Shown piece by piece: positions 2,699 to 42,400 of a DNA stretch of 64,000 nucleotides. The stretch lies in the NCBI GenBank assembly GCA_041650915.1, contig JBAZKE010000001.1:446136-510135 (forward strand). Direction: 5' to 3'. How positions within the stretch are numbered: position 1 is the first letter of the stretch; each line of letters opens with the position of its first letter. Position numbers and translations under genes: made by a program. The notes beneath the pieces are model-generated. The model ran no database searches. It had not been told where the DNA came from and worked only from the letters and a program-made list of their open reading frames with translations. This DNA is from Patescibacteria group bacterium (lineage in GTDB: Bacteria; Patescibacteriota; Patescibacteriia; UBA10025; JAHIVO01).

Positions 2699-3283
2699 AT
2701 GAATGAATCCGGTGCCTGCCAGGGGAAGACGGATGAGGAGCTCGTCTCGCTGTCACTAGAAAATGCCGATTGGTACGGTTGTTTAATGCGGCGGTACGAA
2801 AGCAAGCTCGCGCGGTATATATACCGCATATCCAATGCCAGCGTCGAGGATATCCAAGATTTACTCCAGGAGGTTTTTCTTGCCGCGTACCGCAACCTCA
2901 ATGACTTTGACCAGACATTGAAGTTTTCGTCATGGATTTACCGCATCGCACACAACAAGGTCATCAGCCACTACCGCAAAACGGCTGCCCGTGCGGACGT
3001 TATCGACGGTGAGGAGGGGGAAAAATTGCTTGCGATGGTGAGCGATCAGGCTGACATCTTCGGTTCGGTGAACGACGTGATTACCGGAGAGGTTCTGGGC
3101 AAGCTGCTCAAGAAAATTGACGTGAAGTATAAGGAGGTGCTCGTACTGCGGTACCTTGAGCAGAAAGAATATGGAGAAATTTCCGATATTATAAAAAAGC
3201 CGGTCGGTACCGTCGCGACGCTCCTCAACAGGGCAAAAAAGCGCATGAGAGCGCTCATTGACGAGGAGGGAATAAAACTATGA
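2699..3283 (+). CDS. RNA polymerase sigma-70 family ECF sigma factor
   Basis: Region 2 (LLQEVFLAAYRNLNDFD...FSSWIYRIAHNKVISHYRK) and region 4 HTH (EISDIIKKPVGTVATLLNRAKKRMRA). Confidence 0.75.
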   Translation: MNESGACQGKTDEELVSLSLENADWYGCLMRRYESKLARYIYRISNASVEDIQDLLQEVFLAAYRNLNDFDQTLKFSSWIYRIAHNKVISHYRKTAARADVIDGEEGEKLLAMVSDQADIFGSVNDVITGEVLGKLLKKIDVKYKEVLVLRYLEQKEYGEISDIIKKPVGTVATLLNRAKKRMRALIDEEGIKL

Positions 3284-4059
3284 ATACCATTACCAATAAG
3301 ATACTGGATACAATCAAGGAAAAGCGGATAACGCCGAAACCGCGGTGGCAGTTCCTGCTGAAGCAGGGGCTGGTAGTTGCTGTTACTGTACTCTCGGCGA
3401 TTATCGGAAGCCTCTCATTCAGCGTCATGCTCTTCCGGCTCGTCAACAACGATTGGGATGTCGTTCGGTTTCTCGATAGGTCGCCGGTTCAGTACGCGTT
3501 TAGTACGCTGCCGTACGTCTGGATCATACTGCTCATTCTCTTCATCGGACTCGCGTACTACAACGCACGGCATGCCCGCGGTGCATACCGGCACCAGGCG
3601 TACTGGTTTATCGCCGGAAGCGTGCTCGTGAGCGTCGTATTCGGGAGTGTATTTTACGCATTCGGTGTGGCCCCGCGAATCCATACGTTCGCAGAGGGGG
3701 TGCCGGTATTCCGCGATTTTATCCAGGATCGGGACCGGTTGTGGCTCAAAGCTGATACCGGCTTGCTTGCCGGGGAAATCACCGAACTCTTCGGGGGCGA
3801 TGAACTGTTTGAGCTTGTCGACTTTAATGGCGCTTACTGGATTGTCATTCCGTCCGATAATTACGTACCGCCACCCGCGTTTTTTAAGATCGAGGAGGGC
3901 GTGCAGGTGCGGATGGTCGGAGAACAGCTCGATGCCAATCAGTTTGAAGCTGAGCTTGTCATGCCGTACCATATCGGCCCCGGCGTTATGAAGGGGAAGA
4001 TTAACGGATTCGCTCCGCCCTCAGGCGGTGGGCAGCACCGGCAATGGTTCAATGAGTAG
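3280..4059 (+). CDS. membrane protein co-transcribed with the ECF sigma factor (putative anti-sigma or partner)
   Basis: ATGA overlap with the sigma factor gene. It has 3-4 TM helices and no family motif. The anti-sigma role is inferred from position only. Confidence 0.4.
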   Translation: MNTITNKILDTIKEKRITPKPRWQFLLKQGLVVAVTVLSAIIGSLSFSVMLFRLVNNDWDVVRFLDRSPVQYAFSTLPYVWIILLILFIGLAYYNARHARGAYRHQAYWFIAGSVLVSVVFGSVFYAFGVAPRIHTFAEGVPVFRDFIQDRDRLWLKADTGLLAGEITELFGGDELFELVDFNGAYWIVIPSDNYVPPPAFFKIEEGVQVRMVGEQLDANQFEAELVMPYHIGPGVMKGKINGFAPPSGGGQHRQWFNE

Positions 4060-4813: not shown

Positions 4814-6682
4814 ATGAAACTCAACTACATCAATAAAATCAATTTTAAAAAGCTCAGAACCTATAAGGGAAAGTCGATGTTTTTGATTATTCCGATCACG
4901 TTTTTAATGATGATCGGGATCGTCGTATCGAGCCAGGCGCAAAATATCTTGGACGCCTCGGAACAGACGATATTCGGCACCGCAGCTGAATCGAGCCGGC
5001 TTATTGAACTGACAACTGAACAGTTTACAGGCGGCGGCGACGGCGAACAACGGATCCGCATGATGTTCGGCGGTGATACGGAGTATACGGAAAATGATGT
5101 CAGCGTTATTTCTTCCATTGAAAATGTGGAAGCAGTGGGATTGACCGTACCGGTACCGATCAGCCGGATAACATCAGGTGACCTGCTTGAGGGATCCGAG
5201 GTGTTTTTTAATAATGTCCGTGCTTTGAATGAAGATTTATCAGCCCAATATACCGACCAGCCTTTTACCTACACGGAAGGTGAGCCGATTCCGATCATCG
5301 TCAATGCGCGGTCACTGATGCGGACGTATGAGGATTGGAACGGGCAGGAGGAAATTACGATTGATATGGCTGTACAGCGCGGCCCCGGGAGTGATCCGGA
5401 AGATCGTGAAACGATGGAAAATCAAATGCCCTTTAAAACTGAAGCTCTACAGTACGATCGGGACGATCTGCTTGGCAGGGAGATTACCATCTCGTTCGGC
5501 GGTTTGGACGATATTCAAACGTATGAAACCGAATTTACCGGCACCGGGATCCTTTTCCGCAAACTGACTGATGCAGCAATCCAGGAAGAGGAAGATGCGC
5601 GGCGGGAAGCGATTTCGGCGTACTGGGACTACGACCTGATTACTCAACCTCTCACTTACACATTCAAGGTAGTCGGCGTTCTCGAAGGTGAAACGGATTT
5701 CTCCACGTACATTCCGGAAACATTCACATACGAATTGATGGAGCAGTACGTTCAGAATCAGCTCAATGCGCGGACTAGTACCGAAATAGATGCGAGTGAC
5801 CTCAATTCGACTTTTTTCGGCATGACGTATGACGGGCTCGATCTTACATCAAGCGGCTTTGGAGGAATCGGGAGCTTCCGGGTAGGCCCCGGAATGGCAC
5901 AAGGCATGGTCGGTGGCCAGAGTGCCGCAAATGGCGACGAGGAAACATCCGCTGGCTATACGATTCCCGGCTTGATTATTGAGACAGAACGGGAAGAGGG
6001 CGATGCTGATGCATTCCAGCAGCGCATGTTCGGCGGTACCAGCGATGTAGTCGGTGAATATACGGATCCAGCGGTTTTTGAACAGTCATCCCACTCGTCC
6101 GATACGCTTGTCGTTCGGATTTCGGATCCGCTGTATCGTTCACAGGTCGTTGAGGATCTGAATGACGCCGGGTATGCGTATCAGGACCTTAATGACCAGG
6201 AAGTTTTTTCGGAGCTGCAGGGCACGATGAATAGCGCAACGACCATCGTGACGATTTCATTCGTTGTTCTCTCGGCGGTCATCATTATCCTTACCATGGG
6301 AAAATTCGTGTCCGAGAGTACGAAAGAGATCGGGGTATTCCGCGCTATCGGCGCGAAGAAAAAGGACATTAAGCAGCTCTTCATGTCCCAGGCAGTGCTC
6401 TATACGCTCATCGGATACGTTATTGGCGGACTCATCGGAGTTGGATTGGTTTTTCTACTTGCAAAACCCGTACAGCTCTGGTTTGACGGCTTTATTGAGA
6501 ATACGGTAGAGGAAACCTTTACCGTGGTGCAGGCAACGAGCGCTGGCGTTTTTACCCATATCGACTGGGCCATGTTCGGCGTCTACTCGTTGCTGCTGCT
6601 CGTGATTGCACTCGTCGTTTCAATTATTCCGGCAACGAGGGCTTCGCGCGTATCTCCCGTTGAGGCAATTCGGAGCGAGTAA
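4814..6682 (+). CDS. ABC transporter permease, FtsX/MacB-like, with a large extracytoplasmic domain
   Basis: N-terminal TM, a roughly 450-aa periplasmic domain, and a C-terminal FtsX-type 3-TM module (KKDIKQLFMSQAVLYTLIGYVIGG...). It sits directly downstream of the ATPase. Confidence 0.75.
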   Translation: MKLNYINKINFKKLRTYKGKSMFLIIPITFLMMIGIVVSSQAQNILDASEQTIFGTAAESSRLIELTTEQFTGGGDGEQRIRMMFGGDTEYTENDVSVISSIENVEAVGLTVPVPISRITSGDLLEGSEVFFNNVRALNEDLSAQYTDQPFTYTEGEPIPIIVNARSLMRTYEDWNGQEEITIDMAVQRGPGSDPEDRETMENQMPFKTEALQYDRDDLLGREITISFGGLDDIQTYETEFTGTGILFRKLTDAAIQEEEDARREAISAYWDYDLITQPLTYTFKVVGVLEGETDFSTYIPETFTYELMEQYVQNQLNARTSTEIDASDLNSTFFGMTYDGLDLTSSGFGGIGSFRVGPGMAQGMVGGQSAANGDEETSAGYTIPGLIIETEREEGDADAFQQRMFGGTSDVVGEYTDPAVFEQSSHSSDTLVVRISDPLYRSQVVEDLNDAGYAYQDLNDQEVFSELQGTMNSATTIVTISFVVLSAVIIILTMGKFVSESTKEIGVFRAIGAKKKDIKQLFMSQAVLYTLIGYVIGGLIGVGLVFLLAKPVQLWFDGFIENTVEETFTVVQATSAGVFTHIDWAMFGVYSLLLLVIALVVSIIPATRASRVSPVEAIRSE

Positions 6683-29783: not shown

Positions 29784-30731
29784 TTACGTTAGCGTAGCGC
29801 CGATGAGCGAACCGCTGCCCCGTAAGAATGCATCGATACGGTGTTTCCGTTTTCCCGACAATTGTAGCGTGTACAGTTTGATGCCACCACTGCCGCATCC
29901 TACGATGGCGCCGTTACCGTGCTGCACGACTTGGCCGGGCTTAAGCCGCGTCGGCAGTCCCACGGCTTGCGCATCCAGAATGTGCAGGCGCCTTTCTCCC
30001 CATGAGCAATACGCTCCCGGCCATGGTGTGTAGGCACGTATCTGGCGTTCTATCTGTTCGGCAGGCAGCATCCAGTCGATTTTGCCGGCCTGTTTTTTTA
30101 TAGTTTTCGTCAGCGGCGTTGGGCTGTTTAGGGGCTGTTGCTGGGGTTTGAGTTTGCCTTCGAGAAAGGGGAGCAGCGATTCTTTCAGTATGCTGGTGCC
30201 GAGTGCTGCGAGCGTGTTATGGAGCTCGTCGCAGGCGATGCCACGGGGAATTGGAATCTTTTTTTCGGCAATGATGGGGCCGGTATCGAGGCCAGCGTCG
30301 ATCTGCATGAGCGTGACGCCGGTTGTGGTGTCGCCCGCGAGCAGCGCAGCCTGAATCGGCGATGCGCCGCGGTATTTTGGCAGGAGCGAAGCATGCACGT
30401 TGATCCACCCGTGTGGCGGGATGCTGAGAAAGCCTGGGGGAATAATCTTGCCATACGCCACGAGAACTGCGATATCGGCTCCGAAGCCGGAAAATGCTGC
30501 CATAAACGCCGCCGTATCAAGACGCGGGGGCTGGAATACGGGGATATCGTTTTTCTTTGCGAATACCTTGACCGGAGGGGGAGTTACAACTTGTTTTTTA
30601 CCCACCGGCTTGTCAGGCTGGGTAATGACGGCAGTGACACTGATATGCGGCATGGACAAGAGCGCCTCGAGCGCTGGCACGGCGAATTCGGGCGTTCCAA
30701 AAAAAACTGCTTTATAGAGTTTTCGGTTCAT
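29784..30731 (-). CDS. fmt: methionyl-tRNA formyltransferase
   Basis: AVFFGTPEFAVPALEAL and SLLPKYRGASPIQAALLAGDTTTGVTLMQI. Start placed at Met12 (MNRKLYKA). It lies downstream of def. Confidence 0.8.
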   Translation of the reverse strand: MNRKLYKAVFFGTPEFAVPALEALLSMPHISVTAVITQPDKPVGKKQVVTPPPVKVFAKKNDIPVFQPPRLDTAAFMAAFSGFGADIAVLVAYGKIIPPGFLSIPPHGWINVHASLLPKYRGASPIQAALLAGDTTTGVTLMQIDAGLDTGPIIAEKKIPIPRGIACDELHNTLAALGTSILKESLLPFLEGKLKPQQQPLNSPTPLTKTIKKQAGKIDWMLPAEQIERQIRAYTPWPGAYCSWGERRLHILDAQAVGLPTRLKPGQVVQHGNGAIVGCGSGGIKLYTLQLSGKRKHRIDAFLRGSGSLIGATLT

Positions 30732-31197
30732 CGGGTACGTTACCTTTCGTAATGCTTTTTGCACGGTCCGTGAACAGTATGCCGTCGAGGTGGTCCACTT
30801 CGTGCTGGAATACCCGGGCGAGCAAACCGCGTGCTTTTATTGAAATGCGGCTTCCTTCTTTGTCGTATCCGACTACGGTTAGACTCTGGTGCCTGCGTAC
30901 AATGCCATAAACGCCCGGAATCGAGAGGCAACCTTCTTCACCGTCTTCTTTCTTGAATGATTTGCGGAGAAGGCGGGGGTTAATAACGCTCATCGGGCCG
31001 TCTTTCGTGCTGATCGCGATGATTCGTATCAGCTTATTAACTTGGTTTGCGGCAAGCCCAATACCGTCCCGTTCGAGCATCGTTTTCTCAAACTGGCTGA
31101 TGAAGTCGTGGAGCTTGCCAATTTCTTGTACGGGAACCTCGAGTGATCGAGTCCGCAGCGTATGATGTGGCTGTGTAATGATTGTCAGAAGCGGCAT
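30712..31197 (-). CDS. def: peptide deformylase
   Basis: The three deformylase motifs: GIGLAANQV, EGCLSIPG and QHEVDHLDG. Confidence 0.85.
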   Translation of the reverse strand: MPLLTIITQPHHTLRTRSLEVPVQEIGKLHDFISQFEKTMLERDGIGLAANQVNKLIRIIAISTKDGPMSVINPRLLRKSFKKEDGEEGCLSIPGVYGIVRRHQSLTVVGYDKEGSRISIKARGLLARVFQHEVDHLDGILFTDRAKSITKGNVPDEPKTL

Positions 31198-31255
31198 AGT
31201 CGTATCGGTAGCGGGATTGAGTATACGCCAAGGTTAGCTTTTTTTCAAGTCGTGC

Positions 31256-31858
31256 GTGTTGTGCTACCATGTTACTATGGATGTCGAAGGTTTACAGTAC
31301 GAAGCGCAAATGACCTGGCAAGACGTATTCGAGCGGTGGAAATCGCGTGAAGGCGTGCGGAGTGACTGGCAGCAGGTCGCCCGTGACAAGGGTTGGGACT
31401 CGTGGGAAGAGTGGCGGTCTCATTGGGTTGCCAATTTCGGCGCGCAGGAACGCACCTGGGTGCGCTATGCCATACCTGATCCGGTAAAAACTGTGCCGCA
31501 ATTCAGGATTGGACCAAGCCGGTCATGGCAAAAGTTTTTTCCAGAGACGGAGCGTAACCGCCATACGTTCGCTACACTCGTTGAACGCGCACCGCTCGCG
31601 CGCAACGGCAAGGTGCAAGCACTCAAGGAGCATTTTCCAGAGCCTACGGAATTCATTGGGGTGTATGTACCGGACAAGCGAATTGTTCTCATTGAAGGGC
31701 ACCACCGTGCAGCTGCGCTCGGTCTGCTGGCGCAGCAGGGGAAACGGGTATTGTTCGTCCAGCTTCCTACGATTGCAGTAACAGTATTCAACCCGGGGGA
31801 AGCAGAAATACTGGACCAGATGCTCGAACGGGGATCTGAAAAAAAGAATTATTTATAG
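31256..31858 (+). CDS. ParB/sulfiredoxin-like nuclease-domain protein, hypothetical
   Basis: VLIEGHHRAAALGLLAQQGKRVLFVQLP resembles the ParBc DGHHR core. The rest of the protein is unassigned. Confidence 0.4.
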   Translation: MLCYHVTMDVEGLQYEAQMTWQDVFERWKSREGVRSDWQQVARDKGWDSWEEWRSHWVANFGAQERTWVRYAIPDPVKTVPQFRIGPSRSWQKFFPETERNRHTFATLVERAPLARNGKVQALKEHFPEPTEFIGVYVPDKRIVLIEGHHRAAALGLLAQQGKRVLFVQLPTIAVTVFNPGEAEILDQMLERGSEKKNYL

Positions 31859-32023
31859 TTTGTATCAATTCAATAATTTGACACTTTTTTATAACTACCC
31901 TATACTTCCTTCCAATGAAAACGCACCGCACCACCATTCTCATTAATCTCGTTATTCTTACTGATCTTAGGAGATCAGGCGTTTTCGTGAAGTCTTAGCA
32001 AACGAGTTTAGATAAACGAAAGG

Positions 32024-32050
32024 CTGATCTTCTGAAAGGATCAGTTTTTT
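32024..32050 (+). terminator. rho-independent terminator (second of two CTGATC/GATCAG hairpins)
   Basis: CTGATC-TTCTGAAAG-GATCAG followed by TTTTTT. A similar hairpin, CTGATCTTAGGAGATCAG followed by GCGTTTTC, lies at about 31961..31985. Confidence 0.55.
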
Positions 32051-32542
32051 ATATAGCTCTTTTTCAGCTCATAGCCATCGGGTAATGAAGAAACCGCGAA
32101 TACAGAACATTTTGTTGCCAAGGGGTGAATCTATGCCAGAATCAGATGAAAAGAAGGAAACGGCAGCAGTTGAGGAAACCTCAGCAGCCGGCGCTCAGAG
32201 CTCCTATGAAGCACTCAACAAACTCTGTTGTGATGATCACCTGCGCGGTGCATCCGGAACGCCGCCGCCGCCGTTTCCCACGTGGCCAGTGTGCTAACCT
32301 GCCTATAGAGGCGGAATGGGCACCAGAGCAGGCCGGGGAGACCTTTTGTGGGTTTCTCCGGCCACCTCATTTTTGTGGATAACTATTTGACTGTTTTTTT
32401 CTATGGTATATACTTCCAATCAATACGCCATGAAAAACGTCTGCTCAATACAATTGTTTAACCTCTTTCTCCTTGCGCACGCGGGGAGTGCTGGCGTATT
32501 GGTCGAGCGTTAGAACGTACGTATAGAGTAGCGACACGCCAG

Positions 32543-32565
32543 TCTCCCGAGCAGGGAGATTTTTT
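32543..32565 (+). terminator. rho-independent terminator with no obvious upstream CDS
   Basis: TCTCCC-GAGCA-GGGAGA followed by TTTTTT. Confidence 0.55.
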
Positions 32566-32731
32566 ATATAACATTTTTTTCGATACATTTGCGCTTGCGG
32601 ATTTCCGGCACAAATTTTTCCTGCGATGAATACTAAAACAATGAACGTACTGTTCCTTTTTCTCGGTCTTACCGCGCCGGTTCTCTTCGCGTACCATTGA
32701 ATTGCACAGCAATTGAGCGTACACGAAAGGG

Positions 32732-32758
32732 ACTGGCGGATATAGCGCCAGTTTTTTT
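32732..32758 (+). terminator. rho-independent terminator
   Basis: ACTGGCG-GATATA-GCGCCAG followed by TTTTTTT. The only ORF upstream is a 24-codon hydrophobic one (32626..32700). Confidence 0.55.
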
Positions 32759-32805
32759 AAAAAATCACAAACAAACCAAAAACAGCGTACCTTAAGGAGG
32801 TTTCC

Positions 32806-33099
32806 ATGAACACGGACGCAACAGTGACCGCACAGTGCCCGCAGTGCCATCAGCCGTTGAACGTCACCTGGGAGTCAGACCGGTATACGTTCAGGTGTTC
32901 CTGCGGCTATCGCAGTGAATTCCCGAGCCTAACCGCGAGCATGGCTCAATTGACCTTCACTCACCGTAAGTGCGGCGTTAATCTGAGCCCGATCGGCCAT
33001 GATCCGATCATCTCGGAACACTGCCGGTGCAAGGCGTGGACTGAAGATGCGCTGATCGGCAGCATGACGATTCAGACGGTTTTAATAGGAGGCTGGTGA
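32806..33099 (+). CDS. small Cys-rich zinc-ribbon protein, hypothetical
   Basis: Strong RBS AAGGAGG 7 nt upstream of the ATG. It has CPQC and CSCG pairs plus a further HCRC. Followed by a terminator. Confidence 0.5.
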   Translation: MNTDATVTAQCPQCHQPLNVTWESDRYTFRCSCGYRSEFPSLTASMAQLTFTHRKCGVNLSPIGHDPIISEHCRCKAWTEDALIGSMTIQTVLIGGW

Positions 33100-33136
33100 C
33101 AGCCTGTTTACGGACCGAACGGTGCATCGCTTATCA

Positions 33137-33168
33137 GGGGCAGATCTCTGGATCTGCCCCGGTTTTTT
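33137..33168. terminator. bidirectional rho-independent terminator between convergent genes
   Basis: GGGGCAGATC-TCTG-GATCTGCCCC with a T-tract on the plus side and the convergent priA stop adjacent. Confidence 0.6.
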
Positions 33169-35044
33169 ATAATAACGTTTCAGGGTCACGGTCGATGATC
33201 CAGTCGTGAGGCACGTGATCGGCAGCCATTGCCAGGATGGGCTGATCCTCTTCGGATTTAAACTTTACGATAACATACATGCGCCACCTGTTCTGCTGGA
33301 ACGGGCGCAACGGGGTCAGGAGCATGACGTCGAGTTTGGAAAACTTGAGCATCCGGTAAAGACGCTGTGCCTCCCTCAGGCACTGTTCCTTATCGCGGCT
33401 TGAGTATATGAGCTTCAGAAGGCTTCCATACGGCGGATAGTTTGCCGCTTCACGTTCCCGGAGTTCATGCTGATAAAAGGGTGTATGCTCGCCGGTTAAG
33501 AAATGTCTGAGAGCCGCATTGTCAGGGGAATATGTCTGCACGACTAGCGACGATTGATTCAAATACTGCAGTTTCCGTAAAAGCTGAAAGGTGCGTTCGC
33601 TCGATCTGAAATCCGGGAGGTGCAGGAAGGTATCGGCCGAAATGACGCCAGTCAAACCAACCGATTGCCAGTCGAGGTGATTGAGGATTCGTATGGTGCC
33701 GATAATGATATCCTTGCCATGCAATACCGTATTGAGCTCAGTATCTGCATCAAATCTGGCGGAAGAAGCGCTTGGCCACCTTTTCCTAACTTCCCGTTCG
33801 ACTTTCTGAGTGCCAGTTCCGGTAAATGTAAAGCCTGCGCCGCTACACCGAGGGCAGCACGGGGGCATCATGCTTTTTTTATTGCATCGGTGGCAGTACA
33901 GTGCATTTTCTTTCTCGTGGTAAATGAGCGGAAGGCTGCAGGTACTGCACGATAGTGAAGAGCCGCAGTCATTGCACAGCACCGCAGAAGAACTGCCGCG
34001 TTTATTTAAAAAAAGGAGCACCTGCTTTTTTGCTCTGAGAGCTGCATCTACCTCGGACTGCAACAGGTCCGAAAAAAGCGAGTAGTTTCTCTTCTTGTGC
34101 TCTTCTCGCATGTCAATGAGTTGCAGTTTCGTTTTTGGCGGATTTCCCGTTGTAAGAATGTTTGCAGTTTTGCGTACACCGCGCGAGAACGAAACGACGG
34201 TCGGTGCCGGCGATATTCGCATGAGCTGTGCCCCGTGCAGTCGGGCGAGCTGTTCTGCCGCTGTCCGGGAATCGTATCGCGGATTCTGGTCTGCTTGCTT
34301 ATGGTTTTGGTCGTCCTCCTGGTCAATAATGATATGTCCTAACTTTTTATACGGCATGAAAAGCGCGAGTTTTGTGCCGACCGTAATGGCAGCGTCGCTG
34401 TCTTGGATCGACTGGTATGCCCTGTAGTAATCACTTTTATTAAGTTTGCTGTGGATTATCGCTGTTTTTTTCTGAAGATTGCGCGGGAAGAGAGATTTGA
34501 TGTGCCCAATATCCTGGATGCCAGGCACGATGATGAGCAAATGCTTCTTTACGCTGCGGGCAATTTCTCCGATGAACGAATCATGCTCGTCGGGGTTACA
34601 TGGAAGAAAAATATGTTCCCTCGCCAGATTACGGGCAGCCTGCCTCGCAAGGGAAGCCGCTTCACGGGCTATGCCATACTTCACTCGGTGGATTGCGCCA
34701 GGGGATTTTTTCCCCGCCATCCGTTTCGGCATTGACGGCAGGATCATTTTAATGACCGTACCGAGCGATACACTGTAGTACCGTGAAATCCATTCAGCGA
34801 GCGCCACCTGCTCCGGCGTCAGCAGAGTGCTCGTCTGCGCTCTGCCTGCAAGAGGTTTGATTTTTTTCCCCTCGATGCCTTGTTGTTTTATTTTTATTAC
34901 GATGCCTTCACGCATCGAATTGCGAAAGGGGATCGTGACGAGCTGGCCGACCTTTATTGTTTTTTCGAACGAAAAAGGCACCTCGTAATCAAAAATTCCG
35001 AGATTTTTTGGGAATCGTTGGGATAATACGATTTCACAGAACAT
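33167..35044 (-). CDS. priA: primosomal protein N' (PriA) homolog with degenerate ATPase motifs
   Basis: N-terminal 3'BD-like MFCEIVLSQRF. Cys4+Cys4 zinc region CNDCGSSLSCSTC...CHRCN...CCPRC at the expected spacing. Where Walker A (GxGKT) should be the sequence is CNPDEHDSF, and the DEEH box reads DQED. Confidence 0.7.
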   Translation of the reverse strand: MFCEIVLSQRFPKNLGIFDYEVPFSFEKTIKVGQLVTIPFRNSMREGIVIKIKQQGIEGKKIKPLAGRAQTSTLLTPEQVALAEWISRYYSVSLGTVIKMILPSMPKRMAGKKSPGAIHRVKYGIAREAASLARQAARNLAREHIFLPCNPDEHDSFIGEIARSVKKHLLIIVPGIQDIGHIKSLFPRNLQKKTAIIHSKLNKSDYYRAYQSIQDSDAAITVGTKLALFMPYKKLGHIIIDQEDDQNHKQADQNPRYDSRTAAEQLARLHGAQLMRISPAPTVVSFSRGVRKTANILTTGNPPKTKLQLIDMREEHKKRNYSLFSDLLQSEVDAALRAKKQVLLFLNKRGSSSAVLCNDCGSSLSCSTCSLPLIYHEKENALYCHRCNKKSMMPPCCPRCSGAGFTFTGTGTQKVEREVRKRWPSASSARFDADTELNTVLHGKDIIIGTIRILNHLDWQSVGLTGVISADTFLHLPDFRSSERTFQLLRKLQYLNQSSLVVQTYSPDNAALRHFLTGEHTPFYQHELREREAANYPPYGSLLKLIYSSRDKEQCLREAQRLYRMLKFSKLDVMLLTPLRPFQQNRWRMYVIVKFKSEEDQPILAMAADHVPHDWIIDRDPETLL

Positions 35045-35046
35045 AG

Positions 35047-35565
35047 CTACGTATGGCGCTCCACGGTAAACCGGTACAGGAGTAGCGTGGGATCGCGCTG
35101 GTCCATCCCCCCCTTATTGCAGCAAATTGCGAACTGATCCTCGGCGCTGTCGATCCCGATGTCCGGCAGCAGCAGGCCTGATTGGTTTTCACCGTTTTTG
35201 ACTATAAGGCCGTGTATTGTGGGATTTTGGTCTATGAGGGAAAAAATCTGTTCAGGCTTCGAAAGCACGTCAACGTGTATGCTCAGGTCGTCAAGCTCGT
35301 CAGCGGAGATCGGATTAAAGCGCGGATCGCCAAAAGCTGCGGCGATTGCATTCGTAACTATTTCAAGCGCAACCATCGCCTTTGCGGGCTGGAAGGTGCC
35401 GATACAGCCACGCAAGGCCTGGTTGGATTTTTTATGAATCGAAACGAAAATGCCCGCTTTTCGCGTGAGCATTTCTCCCGGCAAATTGGGAGGCAGTTCG
35501 GGTTCGATGCCGGTGTGAACGAAGTCTGCAACGGCCTTAGTGGCGAGCTCAACGTACGGGTCCAT
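35047..35565 (-). CDS. AMMECR1-domain protein (AmmeMemoRadiSam system protein A-like)
   Basis: Signature LRGCIGT and GLLLP motifs. Length is about 170 aa. Its gene stop lies 3 nt before the priA start. Confidence 0.7.
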   Translation of the reverse strand: MDPYVELATKAVADFVHTGIEPELPPNLPGEMLTRKAGIFVSIHKKSNQALRGCIGTFQPAKAMVALEIVTNAIAAAFGDPRFNPISADELDDLSIHVDVLSKPEQIFSLIDQNPTIHGLIVKNGENQSGLLLPDIGIDSAEDQFAICCNKGGMDQRDPTLLLYRFTVERHT

Positions 35566-35638
35566 AGTGTCCCTATTGTATCACGTTATGGGAGTACAAA
35601 AAAGCCATCGCAAAAGCCGGTGGCTCTGTATACAAAAA

Positions 35639-36343
35639 TTATAAATTCTGAAGCAGCCTTCTCGAGAACGTGTAGTTTGGCTGTACGAGGCGTTTGAGCG
35701 TCCGAATCGAAAGCTTGTCAGCGACGTGGTCAGCGAGGGAATTCATCACGATGTAACTCAGGGCCGTTCCGCCGGTAAAGAGCATCCGTTCAAGAAATAC
35801 GATTGGGATAAGGCCGATCCAGACCTCTGCAGGAAGGTTGAAAATATAGAGGAACGTGACGCTGCCGATCGCATGGGCGGTAAAAGTGGCGCCGAGGCTG
35901 TTAAAAACGAGGCTGCGTTTTGCGAAAGAAGCCGCGAGAGGAATCAGCCAGTAGAGCGAGTAAAACCATGCGCCGCGTCCTTCAGGATGGAGCATGAAGA
36001 GCGCAATGCATGCGAGGGGGAGCATCGCGACGAGCGTTTTATATCTGCGTGCGCCGAAGTAAAGTGCGGCGAGCGCGAGCGGGAAGAGGCGCACAACCGT
36101 TGCCGCATCGAGGCTTTGGTCGGTGATGAGCGCATTGGCGAGCTTTACGATTACGACTGATAGCGCACCCCAGAGGGATGTTAAAAAAGCACCAATAGTG
36201 GGTGCAAAAAAGTCGAACAATGAAAACTGCTGGCTCGACCCGATTATGTTCGTGAAGGGAATCTGAAGAAATAGAAATCCTACGCCAATGAATGCGCAGA
36301 GGTAAAAAATTTTTCTATTATTTTTTTTCATATTCGTGGCCAT
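35639..36343 (-). CDS. integral membrane protein (possible ECF-type S-component-like), hypothetical
   Basis: 6-7 TM helices and no soluble domain. It sits inside the AmmeMemoRadiSam operon. Confidence 0.35.
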   Translation of the reverse strand: MATNMKKNNRKIFYLCAFIGVGFLFLQIPFTNIIGSSQQFSLFDFFAPTIGAFLTSLWGALSVVIVKLANALITDQSLDAATVVRLFPLALAALYFGARRYKTLVAMLPLACIALFMLHPEGRGAWFYSLYWLIPLAASFAKRSLVFNSLGATFTAHAIGSVTFLYIFNLPAEVWIGLIPIVFLERMLFTGGTALSYIVMNSLADHVADKLSIRTLKRLVQPNYTFSRRLLQNL

Positions 36344-36351
36344 GTTACTGA

Positions 36352-37149
36352 TTAGCGTGCCAGTTTTAAGTTGGCGACCATGTATCCGACCCCGAACGGG
36401 CCTTCATATGAGTACACATCCGTTGTGAAGGACATGCTGTTGAGTATGCCGAGGAGGAGGATAATTGAGCGGAGCCCGCACTCGCCCGCTTCATCGACAA
36501 AGTCAGCATCGAGGTTGAGGATTCCCTTGATGTCATTTTTTTTGAGCAAACCGACGAGTGTTTCATCAAATTTTTTGGCCCAGTGTGAGAACCCAGCGGG
36601 AGCATCCGGAGTCAGGCGGTGGGAGAGATCGCCGGAAGCGATAACCGCGATGCGTTTCGTGTCATTGATCATATCTTCCTGCAGCTGCTTTCCGAATTCG
36701 TAATGCTCATTGTAGTCGAGCATAGAGAATGAGACCGGTACGATTTTTATGTCTTTCCTGTCAAGGCTTTTTGTGAAGAAGTAGAGCGGAACCCCTGCAC
36801 CGTGGTCCAGCTCCTCCTTGTGGATGAGTACGACGCGCATCTTTGATTCAAGAATTTCTTTGTAGTGGTGTATGAGGCCAATGTCGCCGGGAAGCTTGAT
36901 TTCCGTTGACAGATCGCCGAATTCTTTAAACGTAATGCGGAATTCTGGCGACATATTGAGCGTAAAGGCGTCAGCGTGCATGGGTCCGTGCGGAGAAATG
37001 ATTACGATCGTATCGGGCTTTGAAGCGTAGAGGTCCTCACTGAGCCGTTCCATGCTCGCCGTCGTTTTCTGCACAAAACGTACGTTTTCTTTGCCGATTT
37101 CCGGTATCAGTATCGGCGGGTGGGGCGTAATAGCACTGAAAACAATCAT
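36352..37149 (-). CDS. MEMO1/LigB-superfamily protein (likely AmmeMemoRadiSam system protein B)
   Basis: N-terminal IVFSAITPHPPILIP and IISPHGPMHAD are His-containing motifs of the class III extradiol dioxygenase/MEMO fold. The call rests on the flanking AMMECR1 and radical SAM partner genes. Confidence 0.5.
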   Translation of the reverse strand: MIVFSAITPHPPILIPEIGKENVRFVQKTTASMERLSEDLYASKPDTIVIISPHGPMHADAFTLNMSPEFRITFKEFGDLSTEIKLPGDIGLIHHYKEILESKMRVVLIHKEELDHGAGVPLYFFTKSLDRKDIKIVPVSFSMLDYNEHYEFGKQLQEDMINDTKRIAVIASGDLSHRLTPDAPAGFSHWAKKFDETLVGLLKKNDIKGILNLDADFVDEAGECGLRSIILLLGILNSMSFTTDVYSYEGPFGVGYMVANLKLAR

Positions 37150-37167
37150 AGTGCTGAGAAGTTTAGG

Positions 37168-38556
37168 TTAATCAATTGAGATGGGCTCTCCCTCGGGGTG
37201 GATCAAGACCGCCTTGTCTGTCGTCCAAACGATATTTTCCCACCGAAAACCGAGTGCGTCAAATGTCTCCTGTGAAGCGATGCCGCGACGCATGCCGTTC
37301 GAAATCACGTAGACACCGCGCATGCCTGGCGACGTGACGAGTGTGCCATCCGCGAACTTGATCGGATCGCCAGCCTCGTATACGTCTATTGAAGCTTGCT
37401 CAACCAGAACGGGGATGCGGGTCGAAAAGCGATTCAGCAGTATTTCGCGGGACCAGATTGATTGCCGGACGCCATTCTCCACGTATGAGATGCCGCCGGT
37501 CTCTTTTGACTGCAGCAGGACGCCGGTAGGATAGATGCTCTGCATGGTGATGTTTGGGCCAAACGAGTAAGGCGCGAGTTCCGATTCTGTAGCAACAATT
37601 ATTTCCTCCGGGTTGAAGCCAATGAGGCGGAATACCTCTGGAGATTCGATGTAGCGCCTCTGGTCTCCGTCGAGCAGGAAAACCCTGCCGGTCTCTGCGG
37701 AGCGCACCAGAGAGTAGTTTTGAAACTGGATCGGTGTGCCATTTTCGTACAGCTCTAGATCCGCTTCAGATACGAGTACAATCCTGGCGGGATCGAACCG
37801 TGATACGAGTGCTGCGCGTGAGAGGATCGGGCGCTTCCTGCCGTTCTGGATGAGGTATACCCCGTGTTCACCCTGCACCTGCAGCAGTGATCCGTCAGGG
37901 TACTGTCTCGTGAACCAGTCATTCCAGAAACGCCATACATTGTAGTTGGCATTGTATACGTGCGGGGTATATGTATAGAGGGCGGCTGTCGCATTGTTTA
38001 CCGGTGTCACCTCCCGCGTTCCGTTAAAGTCGACGACTGTACGGGTAATGCCCGGGCCCCAGCCCGAGAGCGTGTAGCCGCGGGTCTCAAGGTCCGTCAA
38101 GTAGCTCTCGCGCACCCGGCGGGCACCCCAGTTTACCTGGTTGAAAAAACCTTTAAATTGTTGAATGGCCGGGTCGCTTGTCGAGCACGAATCGCATACT
38201 GCGTATCCGGTCGCCCAATCGAGCTGCCGTTGGGACGGGCTTGCAGTGCCGATCAAACTCTGCTCAACCTGCAGCCGGACGAGCAGGTACTGCGGGCTTA
38301 TTTCCCAGTACTTGCCGGCATCATAGATGATTTGCGCAGCAGTTTTGAGGTTTCCCTGCGTATCGCTCGTCTTGTAGGAAGCAAGGCCGGAACCGCGGAG
38401 TTCGAGAAAACGCTGTATTCTCGTGACGGACATCGAATCCGCATTCTCGAGGTCGTTATCGGAAATGATATAGTTCCAGTTAAAATCAGCTGCGAATGCA
38501 GCCTGCGGCATAGCCAGGAGCAGCATGAGCGTAACGATGATTATTTTTTTTGCCAT
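37168..38556 (-). CDS. secreted protein with four roughly 48-aa tandem repeats, hypothetical
   Basis: Signal peptide MAKKIIIVTLMLLLAMPQAAFA. Four C-terminal repeats of the type G(V/R)Y(L/V)I.NG.RR.I.S.E.F..LGF....I. It is embedded between the radical SAM gene and the MEMO-like gene. Confidence 0.5.
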   Translation of the reverse strand: MAKKIIIVTLMLLLAMPQAAFAADFNWNYIISDNDLENADSMSVTRIQRFLELRGSGLASYKTSDTQGNLKTAAQIIYDAGKYWEISPQYLLVRLQVEQSLIGTASPSQRQLDWATGYAVCDSCSTSDPAIQQFKGFFNQVNWGARRVRESYLTDLETRGYTLSGWGPGITRTVVDFNGTREVTPVNNATAALYTYTPHVYNANYNVWRFWNDWFTRQYPDGSLLQVQGEHGVYLIQNGRKRPILSRAALVSRFDPARIVLVSEADLELYENGTPIQFQNYSLVRSAETGRVFLLDGDQRRYIESPEVFRLIGFNPEEIIVATESELAPYSFGPNITMQSIYPTGVLLQSKETGGISYVENGVRQSIWSREILLNRFSTRIPVLVEQASIDVYEAGDPIKFADGTLVTSPGMRGVYVISNGMRRGIASQETFDALGFRWENIVWTTDKAVLIHPEGEPISID

Positions 38557-38559
38557 AGG

Positions 38560-39585
38560 TTATTGTGTTAAATCTATTGTGGTGCCGCATGACGGGCACG
38601 TTCCATCCCTATCGCGCCGCGCAGTGCGGAAACCCTTGCGTTCGATAACTATTGTACCACATTTTGGGCAGTACGTGTGTTCGCCGCGATGGCCCGGCAC
38701 GTTGCCGATGTATACGTACTGTAATCCTGCCTGTTTTCCGATTTCGTACGCCCGTTCGAGTGTCCTCACATCGGTTGCAGGGAGGTGCTGGAGACGGAAT
38801 GAAATTTCGGGCGAAAAGGCGGAAACGTGCCAGGGAGTGCTTGCCCCGAGCTGGGTGTATATAAAACGGGCGATATCACCAAAGAGCGCATCCGTATCAG
38901 AGAGCGTCGGTATGGAGAGCGTGGTAACCTCAACCCACACGGAGTTTTGTTTAAGCGTTTTGAGGTTTTGTAAAATGGGTTCGAGTTTGCCTCCGCACAC
39001 TTTTTGGTACTGCGTAGCGTCAAAAAACTTCAGGTCGACGTTGATCGCGTCGAGGTAGGGAAGGATGAGCTCGAGCGTCTGGCCGGACATGTAACCATTT
39101 GAAACCCAGCAGTTTTTTATTCCGCGTTCGCGGGCGAGTTTCATGCAGTCAAGCGCGTACTCCAGGAAGATGGTCGGTTCCGTGTAGGTATATGAGATGC
39201 TGTCGCAACGGGTCTCAATAGCGTCAGCTATGATTTGTTCCGGCGTACGTTCCGTTCCGGAAATGGACAGGTCAGTGTATCCGGATTGCTTCGATGCTTG
39301 GGAGATCTGCCAGTTCTGGCAATTGGCGCACCGGAAATTGCACCCTACGGTTGCGATTGAAAGCGATTTCGTACCGGGCAGAAAGTGGAAGAACGGTTTT
39401 TTTTCAATGGGATCGACCGCCTCAGAAATGACCTTGCCGTATACGAGCAGGTAAAGGGTTCCGTTGCGGTTTTCTCGCACCCCGCAGACCCCCCGCGTAG
39501 ACGGAAAAATGGTGCAGTGGTGGTTGCACACGTTACACCGGACTTTGTTATCCTCTAGCGTATCGTAGAGAATCGCTTGTTTCAT
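38560..39585 (-). CDS. AmmeMemoRadiSam system radical SAM enzyme (PflA-like)
   Basis: N-terminal Cys cluster CNVCNHHC...C. Radical SAM CxxxCxxC, present as CNFRCANC followed by QNW. Length is about 340 aa. Confidence 0.75.
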   Translation of the reverse strand: MKQAILYDTLEDNKVRCNVCNHHCTIFPSTRGVCGVRENRNGTLYLLVYGKVISEAVDPIEKKPFFHFLPGTKSLSIATVGCNFRCANCQNWQISQASKQSGYTDLSISGTERTPEQIIADAIETRCDSISYTYTEPTIFLEYALDCMKLARERGIKNCWVSNGYMSGQTLELILPYLDAINVDLKFFDATQYQKVCGGKLEPILQNLKTLKQNSVWVEVTTLSIPTLSDTDALFGDIARFIYTQLGASTPWHVSAFSPEISFRLQHLPATDVRTLERAYEIGKQAGLQYVYIGNVPGHRGEHTYCPKCGTIVIERKGFRTARRDRDGTCPSCGTTIDLTQ

Positions 39586-39712
39586 CGGAATGTTATTATA
39601 TCAAATTTTATTCCAAAAAAATACCCCTCGCTTCAATCAACATTCGGACTGTTAATGGAAAACGAGGGGCAGCAGAACAAGGGCTCTGCGTACAGGGAGA
39701 GATGGCGTTTCC

Positions 39713-40261
39713 TTAATACCTGAGGTATGCCCTGAGGCTAAGGCCGTCTTTGAGATGATCGGCCGTCATGCCGCGGTAATCCGTTTCGAGCCCTGCGCGG
39801 TAGGTGAGCGCGACCACGAGATGCTTGAAATTCAGCATGCCGCCAAATTCAAGCAGGTACCGTGAGCGTTTTGTTAACCACCCCGCGTCATTGTTAAGCC
39901 ACTCGGGCTTGGAGCCTTGAGGAAGCCACCTTGTCAATTGGAGCACGTGCTCGGTGTACAGGCCGCCGAACGCAGCGATCGGTGACTGGCTGGACAGGCT
40001 TACCGCTCCGCTGAATGAGACGGTGAATGTTACGTCAGAGCGTTTGATGCCGTATGCATCAACGCGCGTATGCATTCCGTACGGCACTATTCCGAACGTC
40101 AGCATGAGGTCGGTTGTCGGCAGCCGGTAGCAGATGCCTGCTTCACCAGCGATTTGGCCCCGAGAAGTCGTGTTGACTCCCAACATCCCCTGGAGATCTT
40201 TTGCTTGCAGCGGTAATACGCAGAGCAGTCCCGCTGCGAAAGCAATGAAAAAGTACTTCAC
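39713..40261 (-). CDS. outer-membrane beta-barrel-like protein (OmpW/PagL-size), hypothetical
   Basis: Signal peptide, alternating hydrophobic beta-strand patterns, and a C-terminus ending LRY (aromatic). Confidence 0.35.
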   Translation of the reverse strand: MKYFFIAFAAGLLCVLPLQAKDLQGMLGVNTTSRGQIAGEAGICYRLPTTDLMLTFGIVPYGMHTRVDAYGIKRSDVTFTVSFSGAVSLSSQSPIAAFGGLYTEHVLQLTRWLPQGSKPEWLNNDAGWLTKRSRYLLEFGGMLNFKHLVVALTYRAGLETDYRGMTADHLKDGLSLRAYLRY

Positions 40262-40440: not shown

Positions 40441-41010
40441 ATGCGGTATACTGGCAATATGGGAAAACGAATTTTTATTGCAATTCCGCTGCCCAAGGAC
40501 ACCCAGCAAATCATCAGGAATGTGCAAGAAAAACTGCAGAAATTTAATTGGCCAGTACGCTGGGAGCCAGCGGAAAAGTTGCACATCACGCTGCAGTTTC
40601 TTGGCAGCATTTTTCCGGAAGAACTCCGTGCGGTTGGGCAGATCGCGAGCAGATCGGTTTCTGGCCGTGCGCCGTTTATTGTCGGGCTTCGTGGGTTTAC
40701 TGTATTGCCAAGTGCCCACGCTCCGCACGTAATCTGCATTAAAGGCGTGGCTAGTTATCAGCTGGCACAGCTCCAGTCGAGCGTAGCTGCCGGGCTTGCC
40801 AAGCAGGAAATCGGCAAACCCGAACGCCGGCCCTTCAGTGGCCACGTTACGATCGGGCGCATCAGTAAGCCCGGGGCGAATTATCGCATACTGGAAAAAC
40901 TTGAATTCGATGAGCACTTTAAGGTACACTCGGTACAGGTGGTTGAGAGCGTACTGCAACCGGAACGTGCGCACTATACGGTTATTCGATCCTTTCCTCT
41001 ACGGGTATGA
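40441..41010 (+). CDS. thpR: RNA 2',3'-cyclic phosphodiesterase (2H phosphoesterase, ThpR/LigT)
   Basis: Two H-x-T/S-x motifs: HITLQFLG and HVTIGRI. Confidence 0.7.
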   Translation: MRYTGNMGKRIFIAIPLPKDTQQIIRNVQEKLQKFNWPVRWEPAEKLHITLQFLGSIFPEELRAVGQIASRSVSGRAPFIVGLRGFTVLPSAHAPHVICIKGVASYQLAQLQSSVAAGLAKQEIGKPERRPFSGHVTIGRISKPGANYRILEKLEFDEHFKVHSVQVVESVLQPERAHYTVIRSFPLRV

Positions 41011-41744
41011 AATTAAACATTCTTGGGATAGAAATTGATAACGTCACGCGCGCAGAAGCGATTGGAATGATCGCGGGTTTTTTACACAGCAATGAACGCC
41101 GCTACATTACCACCACGAATCCAGAATTTATCATGGCGGCGCGGCATGACGTTGAGTTCCGCCACATACTTAACAACGCAGATCTTTCGGTCGCCGATGG
41201 AATGGGAATTGTTTTTGCTGCGAAGCGGCATGGGCAGTCCCTGAAGGCCCGCATACCCGGCGTAGACCTACTCTGGGATATTGTGCGCCTTGCGGAGCAA
41301 GAAGGAAAGTCAATTTTTCTTCTTGGATCAAAGCGAGGTGTGCCAGAACGTGCAGCTATGGCAATAAAAAATCGCAATCCGGAAGCCGTGATCGCCGGAG
41401 CTGAGTGCGGATACCGCCGGTGGCATCGCCAGATGAAGGCGCATAAGCTCGTTGCGATGATCAATCGTGCGAAGCCGGATATTCTCTTTGTTGCGTTTGG
41501 GCAGGTGAAGCAGGAGAAATGGATCTACCATAACCTATCGAAGCTCGAGACTGTCAAGGTTGCGATGGGTGTCGGCGGCTCGTTCGATTATATCGCCGGC
41601 GAAGTCAAGCGCGCACCACAGTGGATGCGTTCGGCCGGCATCGAGTGGCTGTACCGCCTGATCGTGCAGCCGTGGCGCTTGCCGCGCATTGCCACAGCGG
41701 TCGTGCGTTTCAGCTTCACGGTTCTATTTTCAAAAAAACGATGA
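41007..41744 (+). CDS. WecB/TagA/CpsF-family glycosyltransferase
   Basis: ILGIEIDNVTRAEA...RYITTTNPEFIM...ADLSVADGMGIVFAAK are family motifs. ATGA overlap with the upstream gene. Confidence 0.7.
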   Translation: MKLNILGIEIDNVTRAEAIGMIAGFLHSNERRYITTTNPEFIMAARHDVEFRHILNNADLSVADGMGIVFAAKRHGQSLKARIPGVDLLWDIVRLAEQEGKSIFLLGSKRGVPERAAMAIKNRNPEAVIAGAECGYRRWHRQMKAHKLVAMINRAKPDILFVAFGQVKQEKWIYHNLSKLETVKVAMGVGGSFDYIAGEVKRAPQWMRSAGIEWLYRLIVQPWRLPRIATAVVRFSFTVLFSKKR

Positions 41745-42400
41745 GATTCCGTTACTTCGACATTATTCTTGGTCTGTTCGTGGCTGTTTTGTTGATTTCG
41801 AACATCGTATCCACGAAAATAGTAGATTTCGGGCCGTTTTCGTTCGATGGCGGCACGTTGCTGTTTCCTCTCGCGTACATATTCGGCGATATACTCACCG
41901 AGGTATACGGTTACCGTGCTGCGCGCCGGGTGATCTGGACAGGCTTTTTCAGCGCACTGCTCATGTCAGCAGCCGTTATTGTAGTCGGAAAACTTCCGGC
42001 AGCAGCTGACTGGATGAATCAGGATGCGTACGATGCAGTGCTTGGATTGGCTCCGCGTATTGTAGTTGCGTCTCTTGTCGCGTACTTCGCTGGCGAGTTT
42101 TCAAATTCCTTCACGCTAGCGAAGATGAAAATTGCCACAAGAGGAAAATGGTTATGGATACGTACGATCGGTTCGACGGTTGTCGGAGAGGGGATCGATA
42201 CTGCGCTGTTCGTACTCATTGCATTTTGGGGAGTACTGCCAGTAGATTTATTGGTTTCAGTTTTAATTTCTAACTATGTTTTTAAAGTTGGCATGGAAGC
42301 ACTATTTACTCCAATTACGTATGGTGTTATAAAAAAGTTAAAGGATGATGAAGGAATTGACGTATACGATCGCAAAACAAATTTTAATCCTTTTAAATAA
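41741..42400 (+). CDS. yhhQ: queuosine precursor transporter (YhhQ/DUF165)
   Basis: Start moved to Met41 (MRFRYFDIILG), ATGA-coupled. LISNIVSTKIVDFGPFSFDGGTLLFPLAYIFGDILTEVYGY is the family core. Confidence 0.75.
   Translation: MRFRYFDIILGLFVAVLLISNIVSTKIVDFGPFSFDGGTLLFPLAYIFGDILTEVYGYRAARRVIWTGFFSALLMSAAVIVVGKLPAAADWMNQDAYDAVLGLAPRIVVASLVAYFAGEFSNSFTLAKMKIATRGKWLWIRTIGSTVVGEGIDTALFVLIAFWGVLPVDLLVSVLISNYVFKVGMEALFTPITYGVIKKLKDDEGIDVYDRKTNFNPFK

Follow-up and report, generated by a model that had tools for sequence, protein, structure and literature searches.

The 64-kb window analysed here, that is the whole stretch of DNA, comes from a Kerfeldbacteria-like Patescibacterium of the Candidate Phyla Radiation (CPR). 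On its minus strand (35047-39585) lie genes for a radical S-adenosylmethionine enzyme (rSAM), a repeat protein with a predicted signal peptide (REP), a LigB-type protein, a membrane protein (MEM) and AMMECR1, in this order, followed by a gene for a PriA-like protein (33167-35044, minus strand; TIGR00595, 324 bits). Over 98% of its length, MEM shows 100% identity to protein WC505_02260 of a metagenome-assembled genome at NCBI, and its closest named relatives belong to Candidatus Kerfeldbacteria. The first-pass annotation had described five minus-strand genes separated by 3-72 nt as an expanded AmmeMemoRadiSam operon. The five genes were recovered at the same positions, and the gaps needed a small correction to 3, 18, 8 and 73 nt from rSAM through to AMMECR1, with a further 2 nt before priA. 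The three genes of the AmmeMemoRadiSam type span no more than 4.5 kb. A search for defence systems with PADLOC gave only a generic resemblance of the rSAM to pVip (~22 bits).

Two of the three core proteins are clear by family models. The rSAM (38560-39585, minus strand; 341 aa) scores 331.2 bits against TIGR04337, whose cutoff is 220, over residues 7-337, and 64 bits against PF04055. The cysteine features noticed earlier are both seen in the sequence, namely the N-terminal Cys cluster and the CX3CX2C motif in the form CNFRCANC, alongside C-terminal CxxC pairs. On these grounds the protein is a PflA-activase-like radical SAM enzyme of the AmmeMemoRadiSam type. AMMECR1 (35047-35565, minus strand; 172 aa) carries an LRGCIG motif, exceeds the cutoff of TIGR04335 (120.6 against 99 bits) and matches PF01871 with 139.8 bits; the identical protein at NCBI is named 'AmmeMemoRadiSam system protein A'. 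The protein in the position of 'protein B' (36352-37149, minus strand; 265 aa) passes TIGR04336 barely, with 29.7 bits against a cutoff of 26, and reaches 34.9 bits against the Memo model PF01875, while the LigB model PF02900 is matched over its full length (residues 7-258) with 146.9 bits. The earlier label of a MEMO/LigB-like protein is thus borne out on the LigB side and weak on the Memo side. Its nearest solved sequences are 4,5-DOPA extradiol dioxygenases (DODA) and TK2203, and the alignment to DODA takes in the motifs PHPP, SPHG, DHG and SGDLSH. Residues H10, H54, D115, H177 and E249 are conserved, also at loci where rSAM and AMMECR1 are absent, and four of them, predicted to be positions of metal-ligand type (H10, H54, H177 and E249), are kept in 24-25 of the 25 LigB-type orthologues. 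By family match and motifs, the middle protein is a LigB/DODA-type member of the PCAD-Memo superfamily. The set that had been recognised as a known co-occurring trio is therefore present with a marginal third member: by the curated models the locus belongs to AmmeMemoRadiSam, its B component is atypical, and the trio is of a kind already annotated automatically. Such systems are cited as 'Memo-Ammecr1 systems' in PMC7159879, and the term 'AmmeMemoRadiSam' was found in no title or abstract among the papers matched by a full-text literature search.

REP (37168-38556, minus strand; 462 aa) has no match in Pfam or NCBIfam. It begins with a single hydrophobic segment (aa 5-23) followed by AFA/A, an AxA site read from the sequence, which fits the Sec-type signal peptide (aa 1-22; 38491-38556) that had been claimed for it. 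Four tandem repeats had also been claimed and are there, with a period of about 60 aa in place of the proposed 48 aa. They occupy aa 219-278, 279-338, 339-401 and 402-462 (37171-37902) and share 24-42% pairwise identity; each matches a profile built from the same four at E~1e-32, which checks their register and is not independent evidence. The structure prediction that had been proposed for this protein, an AlphaFold model with a mean pLDDT of 87, places a GH73/lysozyme-like fold at aa 23-218 (37903-38490) ahead of repeats that resemble EccB and PlyCB and would be putative wall-binding elements. PF05108 (EccB) was matched by 7 of 26 members of the REP family, and none of the 26 matched the Pfam models PF01832 (Glucosaminidase) or PF01464 (SLT) at E<=1; a sequence search of the PDB with REP gave no match. 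Catalysis is attributed to REP through its fold, because no hydrolase-family sequence model matches it. E98 and several aromatic residues are invariant in the family, which makes E98 a candidate catalytic Glu. The family comprises more than 1,300 matches, and the named ones are all from Patescibacteria. From the modelled fold we infer that REP is a Sec-exported, peptidoglycan-hydrolase-like protein with EccB/PlyCB-like repeats of a wall-binding type. REP was also considered as a substrate of the rSAM, by analogy with anaerobic sulfatase maturases; gene content makes this less likely, as 11 loci carry REP where rSAM is missing and REP is not part of the canonical system.

MEM (35639-36343, minus strand; 234 aa) is predicted to have about 6-7 helices, in agreement with the 6-7 transmembrane segments noted earlier, and its modelled structure has the six-helix S-component fold known from transporters of the energy-coupling factor (ECF) type. 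The protein in the window matches nothing in Pfam or NCBIfam. Among its relatives, 3 of 22 matched PF12822 (best E 2.9e-7), and a profile of the family found no PDB chain at E<=10. The family is discrete, with 735 clusters at 50% identity among 1.84 billion representatives, and it occurs in 433 GTDB species genomes, DPANN archaea included.

To place these genes in context, the six window proteins were compared by tblastn with all fetched loci, and pre-computed gene tables were read alongside. All five genes keep their order in 13 species genomes related to this one, at protein identities as low as about 50%. Members of the Kerfeldbacteria-like clade have REP between rSAM and LigB, and between LigB and AMMECR1 either a CofE-like gene with MEM or MEM alone; the CofE-like gene and MEM sit exactly there in nine loci. 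Another Patescibacterium (L088) has LigT next to a run of rSAM, LigB/Memo, a 51-aa gene, AMMECR1, PriA, Def and Fmt, without REP and MEM, and a Dehalococcoidales genome has the canonical overlapping rSAM, Memo and AMMECR1 genes with a true Memo. Microgenomatia-like loci (L089, L090) show rSAM, one or more variable genes, LigB, AMMECR1, Def and Fmt, and L085 keeps rSAM and LigB adjacent with three other genes between LigB and AMMECR1. The stretch from rSAM to AMMECR1 holds genes unrelated to REP in L017, L085, L089 and L090. Elsewhere, the slot that separates rSAM from LigB is taken by a 292-aa protein, by a metallophosphatase/5'-nucleotidase or by an FAD-dependent reductase-like protein, and the four occupants that were translated (from L017, L089 and L090) have N-termini that are not hydrophobic by eye. 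MEM is absent from L081-L085 and L088-L090, where the rest of the block is kept, and the order AMMECR1-(PriA)-Def-Fmt is conserved in other Patescibacteria. REP adjoins LigB in all 30 REP-bearing loci, including those without rSAM, AMMECR1 and MEM. REP and MEM do not travel with the trio, and the comparative gene orders mark them as lineage-specific inserts in a conserved block. The first-pass annotation had placed both outside the canonical trio, with which L088 and the Dehalococcoidales locus agree, and it had proposed a check of their conservation in relatives: both are kept inside the cluster in the Kerfeldbacteria-like clade and stand out as inserts against the order of L088. At L017, the slot in which REP sits in the window is filled by an FAD-binding protein with a GAGPAG motif (5352-6380), which, by our own reading of its sequence and not by a model match, looks like a geranylgeranyl reductase.

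Within the trio itself, two members behave as one. Among the loci with both ends visible, 15 have rSAM together with AMMECR1, 11 have neither, and one (L031) is discordant, a co-occurrence with a Fisher p of 9e-7, calculated without correction for phylogeny. On a neighbour-joining tree of REP and LigB, the absences are spread over four or more branches, and the LigB-type gene is kept in the 11 loci that have neither. About 4 kb separates rSAM from AMMECR1, and the three genes in between are retained, so that two deletions are needed whenever both are lost, and repeated losses of this kind argue for a functional coupling of the two. We propose from these gene contents that rSAM and AMMECR1 are dispensable and were lost together several times. 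A LigT-type 2H phosphoesterase gene (40441-41010, plus strand; PF02834, 62.8 bits), divergent from rSAM, was found in 13 of 13 rSAM-positive loci and 1 of 11 rSAM-negative loci in which the upstream WecG gene is visible; the more distant L088 shows the pairing of LigT with rSAM as well. LigT may belong to the rSAM/AMMECR1 unit as a fourth partner; being adjacent, LigT and rSAM could have been removed by a single deletion, and adjacency alone could explain their co-loss. Work by Burroughs and colleagues in 2019 is said to have tied Memo-AMMECR1-radical SAM systems to the modification of nucleotide bases and isoprenoids. The co-variation of LigT and the reductase-like gene at L017 are at least compatible with such a link.

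The neighbourhoods of the MEM family point in another direction. Genes were called in 80 fetched loci, their products clustered, and adjacency counted over 79 loci. Two neighbours recur, namely FolC (TIGR01499, 355 bits) and a CofE-like F420_ligase (PF01996, 206 bits), the latter of which also scores 133 bits against TIGR04132, a 'putative folate metabolism gamma-glutamate ligase'. A FolC or CofE/FolC2-like gene abuts MEM in 40 of the 79 loci and lies at most three genes away in 45, and these pairings occur in several unrelated arrangements in bacteria and archaea. In the complete genome of the DPANN archaeon Fermentimicrarchaeum limneticum, MEM abuts a run of genes for a formyltransferase, FolC, FolD and serine hydroxymethyltransferase (SHMT). 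CT611/FolC2, a chlamydial protein homologous to CofE, complements a folC mutant of E. coli (PMC1971073), so that FolC and the CofE-like neighbours would be analogous enzymes of one step, and two alternative enzymes of the same step beside MEM are a classic signature of a shared pathway. While folA, glyA or folD was found in about 91% of 4,581 CPR genomes, a recognisable folate transporter was absent from the CPR genomes that the same survey examined (PMC11974145). Considering the modelled S-component fold, the adjacency to FolC or CofE-like genes, the archaeal folate cluster and this gap in the survey, MEM is probably a folate-type importer.

Some further observations were made at the MEM loci. 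In the Fermentimicrarchaeum locus (L054, 8001-16595), one strand carries genes for a PHP-like protein, an AmmeMemo-type rSAM that is 45% identical to that of the window, a 359-aa coiled-coil protein, SHMT, FolD and FolC; the formyltransferase gene follows after one opposite-strand gene, and the MEM homologue abuts it on the other strand. AMMECR1 and LigB were not detected within this locus. The MEM neighbours in Magasanikbacteria were considered as a dcw cell-wall cluster, which was dropped since Pfam identified other genes, DprA, LytR and FolC among them; our own reading of the sequences suggests TopA, Der, Pth and RelA as well. On a Staskawiczbacteria contig (L080, 2135-4122), the 16S rRNA gene beside the MEM homologue contains a group I intron (2886-3347, 68 bits). 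In the window, a Vut_1/YhhQ-family putative vitamin (queuosine-precursor) uptake protein is encoded at 41621-42400 on the plus strand, just past WecG, and is a second predicted micronutrient importer less than 6 kb from MEM.

Based on these comparisons, we consider it moderately probable that the array is not a single enlarged operon with one function but a mosaic of separable modules, comprising the AmmeMemoRadiSam set, an exported wall hydrolase and a folate-type importer, placed on a compact, highly conserved synteny block with Def-Fmt at its end. The core block, with LigT beside rSAM, LigB-type protein, AMMECR1, PriA, Def and Fmt, would be the CPR form of the AmmeMemoRadiSam set, in which rSAM and AMMECR1 may act together in the cytoplasm. 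The Kerfeldbacteria-like lineage would have placed between rSAM and LigB the gene of REP, most likely a housekeeping autolysin or wall-remodelling protein, and between LigB and AMMECR1 a vitamin-uptake module of a CofE/FolC2-like ligase and MEM, of which MEM alone would remain in the window. MEM most likely binds and imports a folate, which would be trapped through polyglutamylation and would serve Fmt and further one-carbon enzymes, and MEM would probably work either as a solitary S-component or together with some undefined partner.

Several observations weigh against this mosaic, or against the importer within it. The first four genes (rSAM-REP-LigB-MEM), with gaps of 3-18 nt, are very probably co-transcribed, judging from their spacing. 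The gaps between REP and LigB, from about -1 to ~40 nt across relatives, are tighter than synteny alone requires. MEM lies directly upstream of AMMECR1 in L027 and L037 and about 1 kb upstream in L028, three loci in which LigB, REP and rSAM were not detected, the sequence of L027 and L037 starting at the MEM gene; a PHP-domain protein follows in all three. The rSAM of the Fermentimicrarchaeum locus is co-directional with SHMT, FolD and FolC. As about 8 kb was viewed on either side per locus, rSAM and AMMECR1 could sit elsewhere in the genomes counted as negative. With regard to the importer, the AxxxA motif by which helix 1 of S-components docks on EcfT, and the occurrence of the S-component fold in non-transporters such as MreD and 5TMR kinases, are both on record (PMC11109136); the helix-1 columns of the MEM family show a conserved G22 and no Ala/Ala pair at i,i+4. 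An ABC ATPase was found within 8 kb of MEM in 1 of 79 loci. The window encodes two such ATPases, at ~15.6 and ~17.6 kb, and both carry LSGGEQQR, which we take to be of the FtsE/LolD/MacB type, and EcfT was not searched for. An RNA scan of the 11 MEM loci with long leaders and of the window at 32.5-41 kb returned tRNAs, rRNA and one chance miRNA match and no folate riboswitch, and the 64-kb window contains neither FolC nor a CofE-like gene.

The first-pass annotation had suggested that REP and MEM point to an envelope-directed substrate or product. They would then be accessories of an AmmeMemoRadiSam system that makes or modifies an envelope-bound product, for example a wall component that REP would handle and MEM would move, as the co-directional genes with their 3-18 nt gaps, the order shared by the 13 related genomes and the wall-active enzyme fold modelled for REP might indicate. 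However, REP stays beside LigB in 11 loci without rSAM and AMMECR1, MEM is absent from loci that keep the trio (L083, L085 and L088-L090), and unrelated genes with N-termini that are not hydrophobic by eye fill the same slot elsewhere. The modelled fold of MEM is that of a vitamin importer and not of an exporter or flippase, and its family is mostly found beside FolC or CofE-like ligases. The independent distributions and the importer fold weaken this explanation to the point where it appears improbable. Alternatively, REP and the LigB-type protein could function together as a separate pair that does not depend on rSAM and AMMECR1, the LigB-type protein not truly being 'system protein B' in this clade. 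This would account for their adjacency and narrow gaps in 30 of 30 loci, and it agrees with the conserved LigB residues kept without rSAM and AMMECR1 and with the marginal TIGR04336 score. Yet REP is predicted to be exported and the LigB-type protein has no signal peptide, so that a direct mechanism is not evident. In other Patescibacteria the LigB-type protein lies beside rSAM and/or AMMECR1 without REP, which fits LigB as the B component and REP as a later insert, and we give such a pair as little credence as the envelope-bound product.

A different possibility is that MEM imports a folate-, pterin- or flavin-like aromatic cofactor, which LigB, AMMECR1 and rSAM remodel or salvage and to which the CofE-like enzyme adds glutamates, REP being a bystander. 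LigB-family enzymes act on aromatic rings, and the CofE-like gene and MEM between LigB and AMMECR1 in nine loci, MEM with AMMECR1 where LigB went undetected (L027, L028 and L037) and the AmmeMemo-type rSAM in a DPANN folate cluster would all be expected under such a pathway. So would the position of the block, always just upstream of Def and Fmt, the latter of which uses formyl-tetrahydrofolate. Against this, trio genes are missing from the surroundings of MEM in about 50 of its 79 loci, L083, L085, L088-L090 and the Dehalococcoidales genome carry the trio and no MEM, and rSAM and AMMECR1 are lost while MEM and LigB stay. MEM and the trio mostly occupy different loci. The gene order priA-def-fmt is common across bacteria, and the proximity to Fmt may be inherited synteny in compact genomes. 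The pathway thus seems unlikely, though a little less so than the two explanations above. That in CPR MEM delivers an imported folate- or pterin-like cofactor to LigB, AMMECR1 and rSAM, together with the CofE-like ligase and Def-Fmt, and that the whole system is one of cofactor salvage or remodelling, we regard as improbable. We give about an even chance to the MEM family alone being the CPR/DPANN folate importer that has not yet been pinpointed, which is likelier than its involvement in a cofactor pathway of this type.

In the mosaic that we favour, transcription would probably start from two extended -10 promoters of leaderless type. A promoter-like element TGATATAAT (39595-39603, minus strand) lies 9 nt upstream of the rSAM ATG, a leaderless-type spacing, and another, TGATACAAT (35575-35583, minus strand), lies 9 nt upstream of the AMMECR1 ATG; the pattern TGNTANAAT has eight sites in the window, and these two are the ones placed exactly 9 nt from the two start codons. 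TGnTAnAAT is found 6-9 nt upstream of AMMECR1 in 12 related loci, with a gap of ~70-80 nt before AMMECR1 in most, and it precedes PriA in several loci where AMMECR1 is absent. Similar -10 elements occur before rSAM, or before REP where rSAM is absent, in some relatives, less regularly than at AMMECR1. These elements suggest that rSAM-REP-LigB-MEM and AMMECR1-PriA are transcribed separately, as two putative units of leaderless type. Behind the MEM stop, a hairpin that ends in a run of U (35594-35633, minus strand; -17.3 kcal/mol) is weakly terminator-like. It was rejected as an intrinsic terminator, being no better than shuffled sequences (z = -1.6) and not called by a terminator scan.

Downstream of the array, the PriA-like protein is unusual, as the first-pass annotation had it: the Walker A motif GxxxxGK[ST] is absent and DQED replaces DEEH, and without Walker motifs the protein is probably not an active ATPase or helicase. 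A regular-expression check of the PriA of L088 found neither GxxxxGK[ST] nor DE[EA]H. The conserved downstream end of the synteny block is formed by Def (30712-31197, minus strand; PF01327, 140 bits) and Fmt (29784-30764, minus strand; PF00551 and PF02911). In many relatives Def-Fmt follows directly after PriA, and here about 2 kb (31198-33166) lies between them, with open reading frames (ORFs) at 31256-31858 (plus strand), 32806-33099 (plus strand) and 32458-32850 (minus strand) that have no family match, and with a strong terminator-like hairpin at 33137-33160 (plus strand). At the other end, LigT and rSAM are separated by an ORF of 182 aa with an N-terminal hydrophobic segment (39713-40261, minus strand). 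This ORF matches nothing in Pfam, nor by tblastn in related loci, where LigT adjoins rSAM; it is an insertion specific to this lineage or else no genuine gene.

For the most part, the locus is an ordinary and already auto-annotated system in an unusual gene order. It offers a case of natural genetics, in which rSAM and AMMECR1, with LigT, would be one dispensable unit and the LigB-type protein is kept without them. The by-product of greatest use is the MEM family, whose members are candidate folate transporters of CPR and DPANN organisms. In addition, the position of the conserved extended -10 elements, 6-9 nt ahead of start codons, hints at leaderless mRNAs in this lineage. If a role in cofactor salvage or remodelling were true, it would provide a first lead on what the AMMECR1 and Memo families do; an envelope-directed role would be a clue to the function of these families, both of which are tied to human disease, and the evidence does not support that clue.

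Compared with known systems, MEM would fall among the ECF S-components (RibU, BioY, FolT, ThiT and PanT, and the solitary BtuM), from which it differs in several respects: it has no sequence-level match to solved S-components, is longer (234 aa against ~155-215 aa for solved chains), lacks the conserved AxxxA in helix 1, and belongs to a discrete CPR/DPANN family of 735 clusters with an ABC ATPase nearby in 1 of 79 loci. REP resembles GH73 N-acetylglucosaminidase autolysins and endolysins such as S. pneumoniae LytB, C. perfringens Acp and E. faecalis AtlA in its signal peptide, its predicted lysozyme-like fold and its tandem repeats of wall-binding type. Unlike these, it has no match to the Pfam Glucosaminidase or SLT models or to PDB sequences, its catalytic residue is a candidate (E98), and its repeats are EccB-type rather than choline-binding, SH3b or LysM. 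The LigB-type protein shares the full-length PF02900 match and the conserved His motifs with the class III extradiol dioxygenases (LigB, the 4,5-DOPA dioxygenase DODA/YgiD and Thermococcus TK2203). However, it scores well under every equivalog cutoff, and its partner genes are rSAM and AMMECR1 instead of aromatic-catabolism genes. With the AmmeMemoRadiSam system (TIGR04335 for A, TIGR04336 for B and TIGR04337 for the rSAM), the locus shares an rSAM and an AMMECR1 above the curated cutoffs, a member of the PCAD-Memo superfamily between them, and the joint inheritance and loss of rSAM and AMMECR1. It departs from that system in having a LigB/DODA-type protein B rather than Memo proper (147 against 35 bits), and a trio split by two unrelated genes, AMMECR1 apparently with a promoter of its own. 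Here, moreover, LigB outlasts the loss of rSAM and AMMECR1, and a LigT 2H phosphoesterase co-varies with the rSAM.

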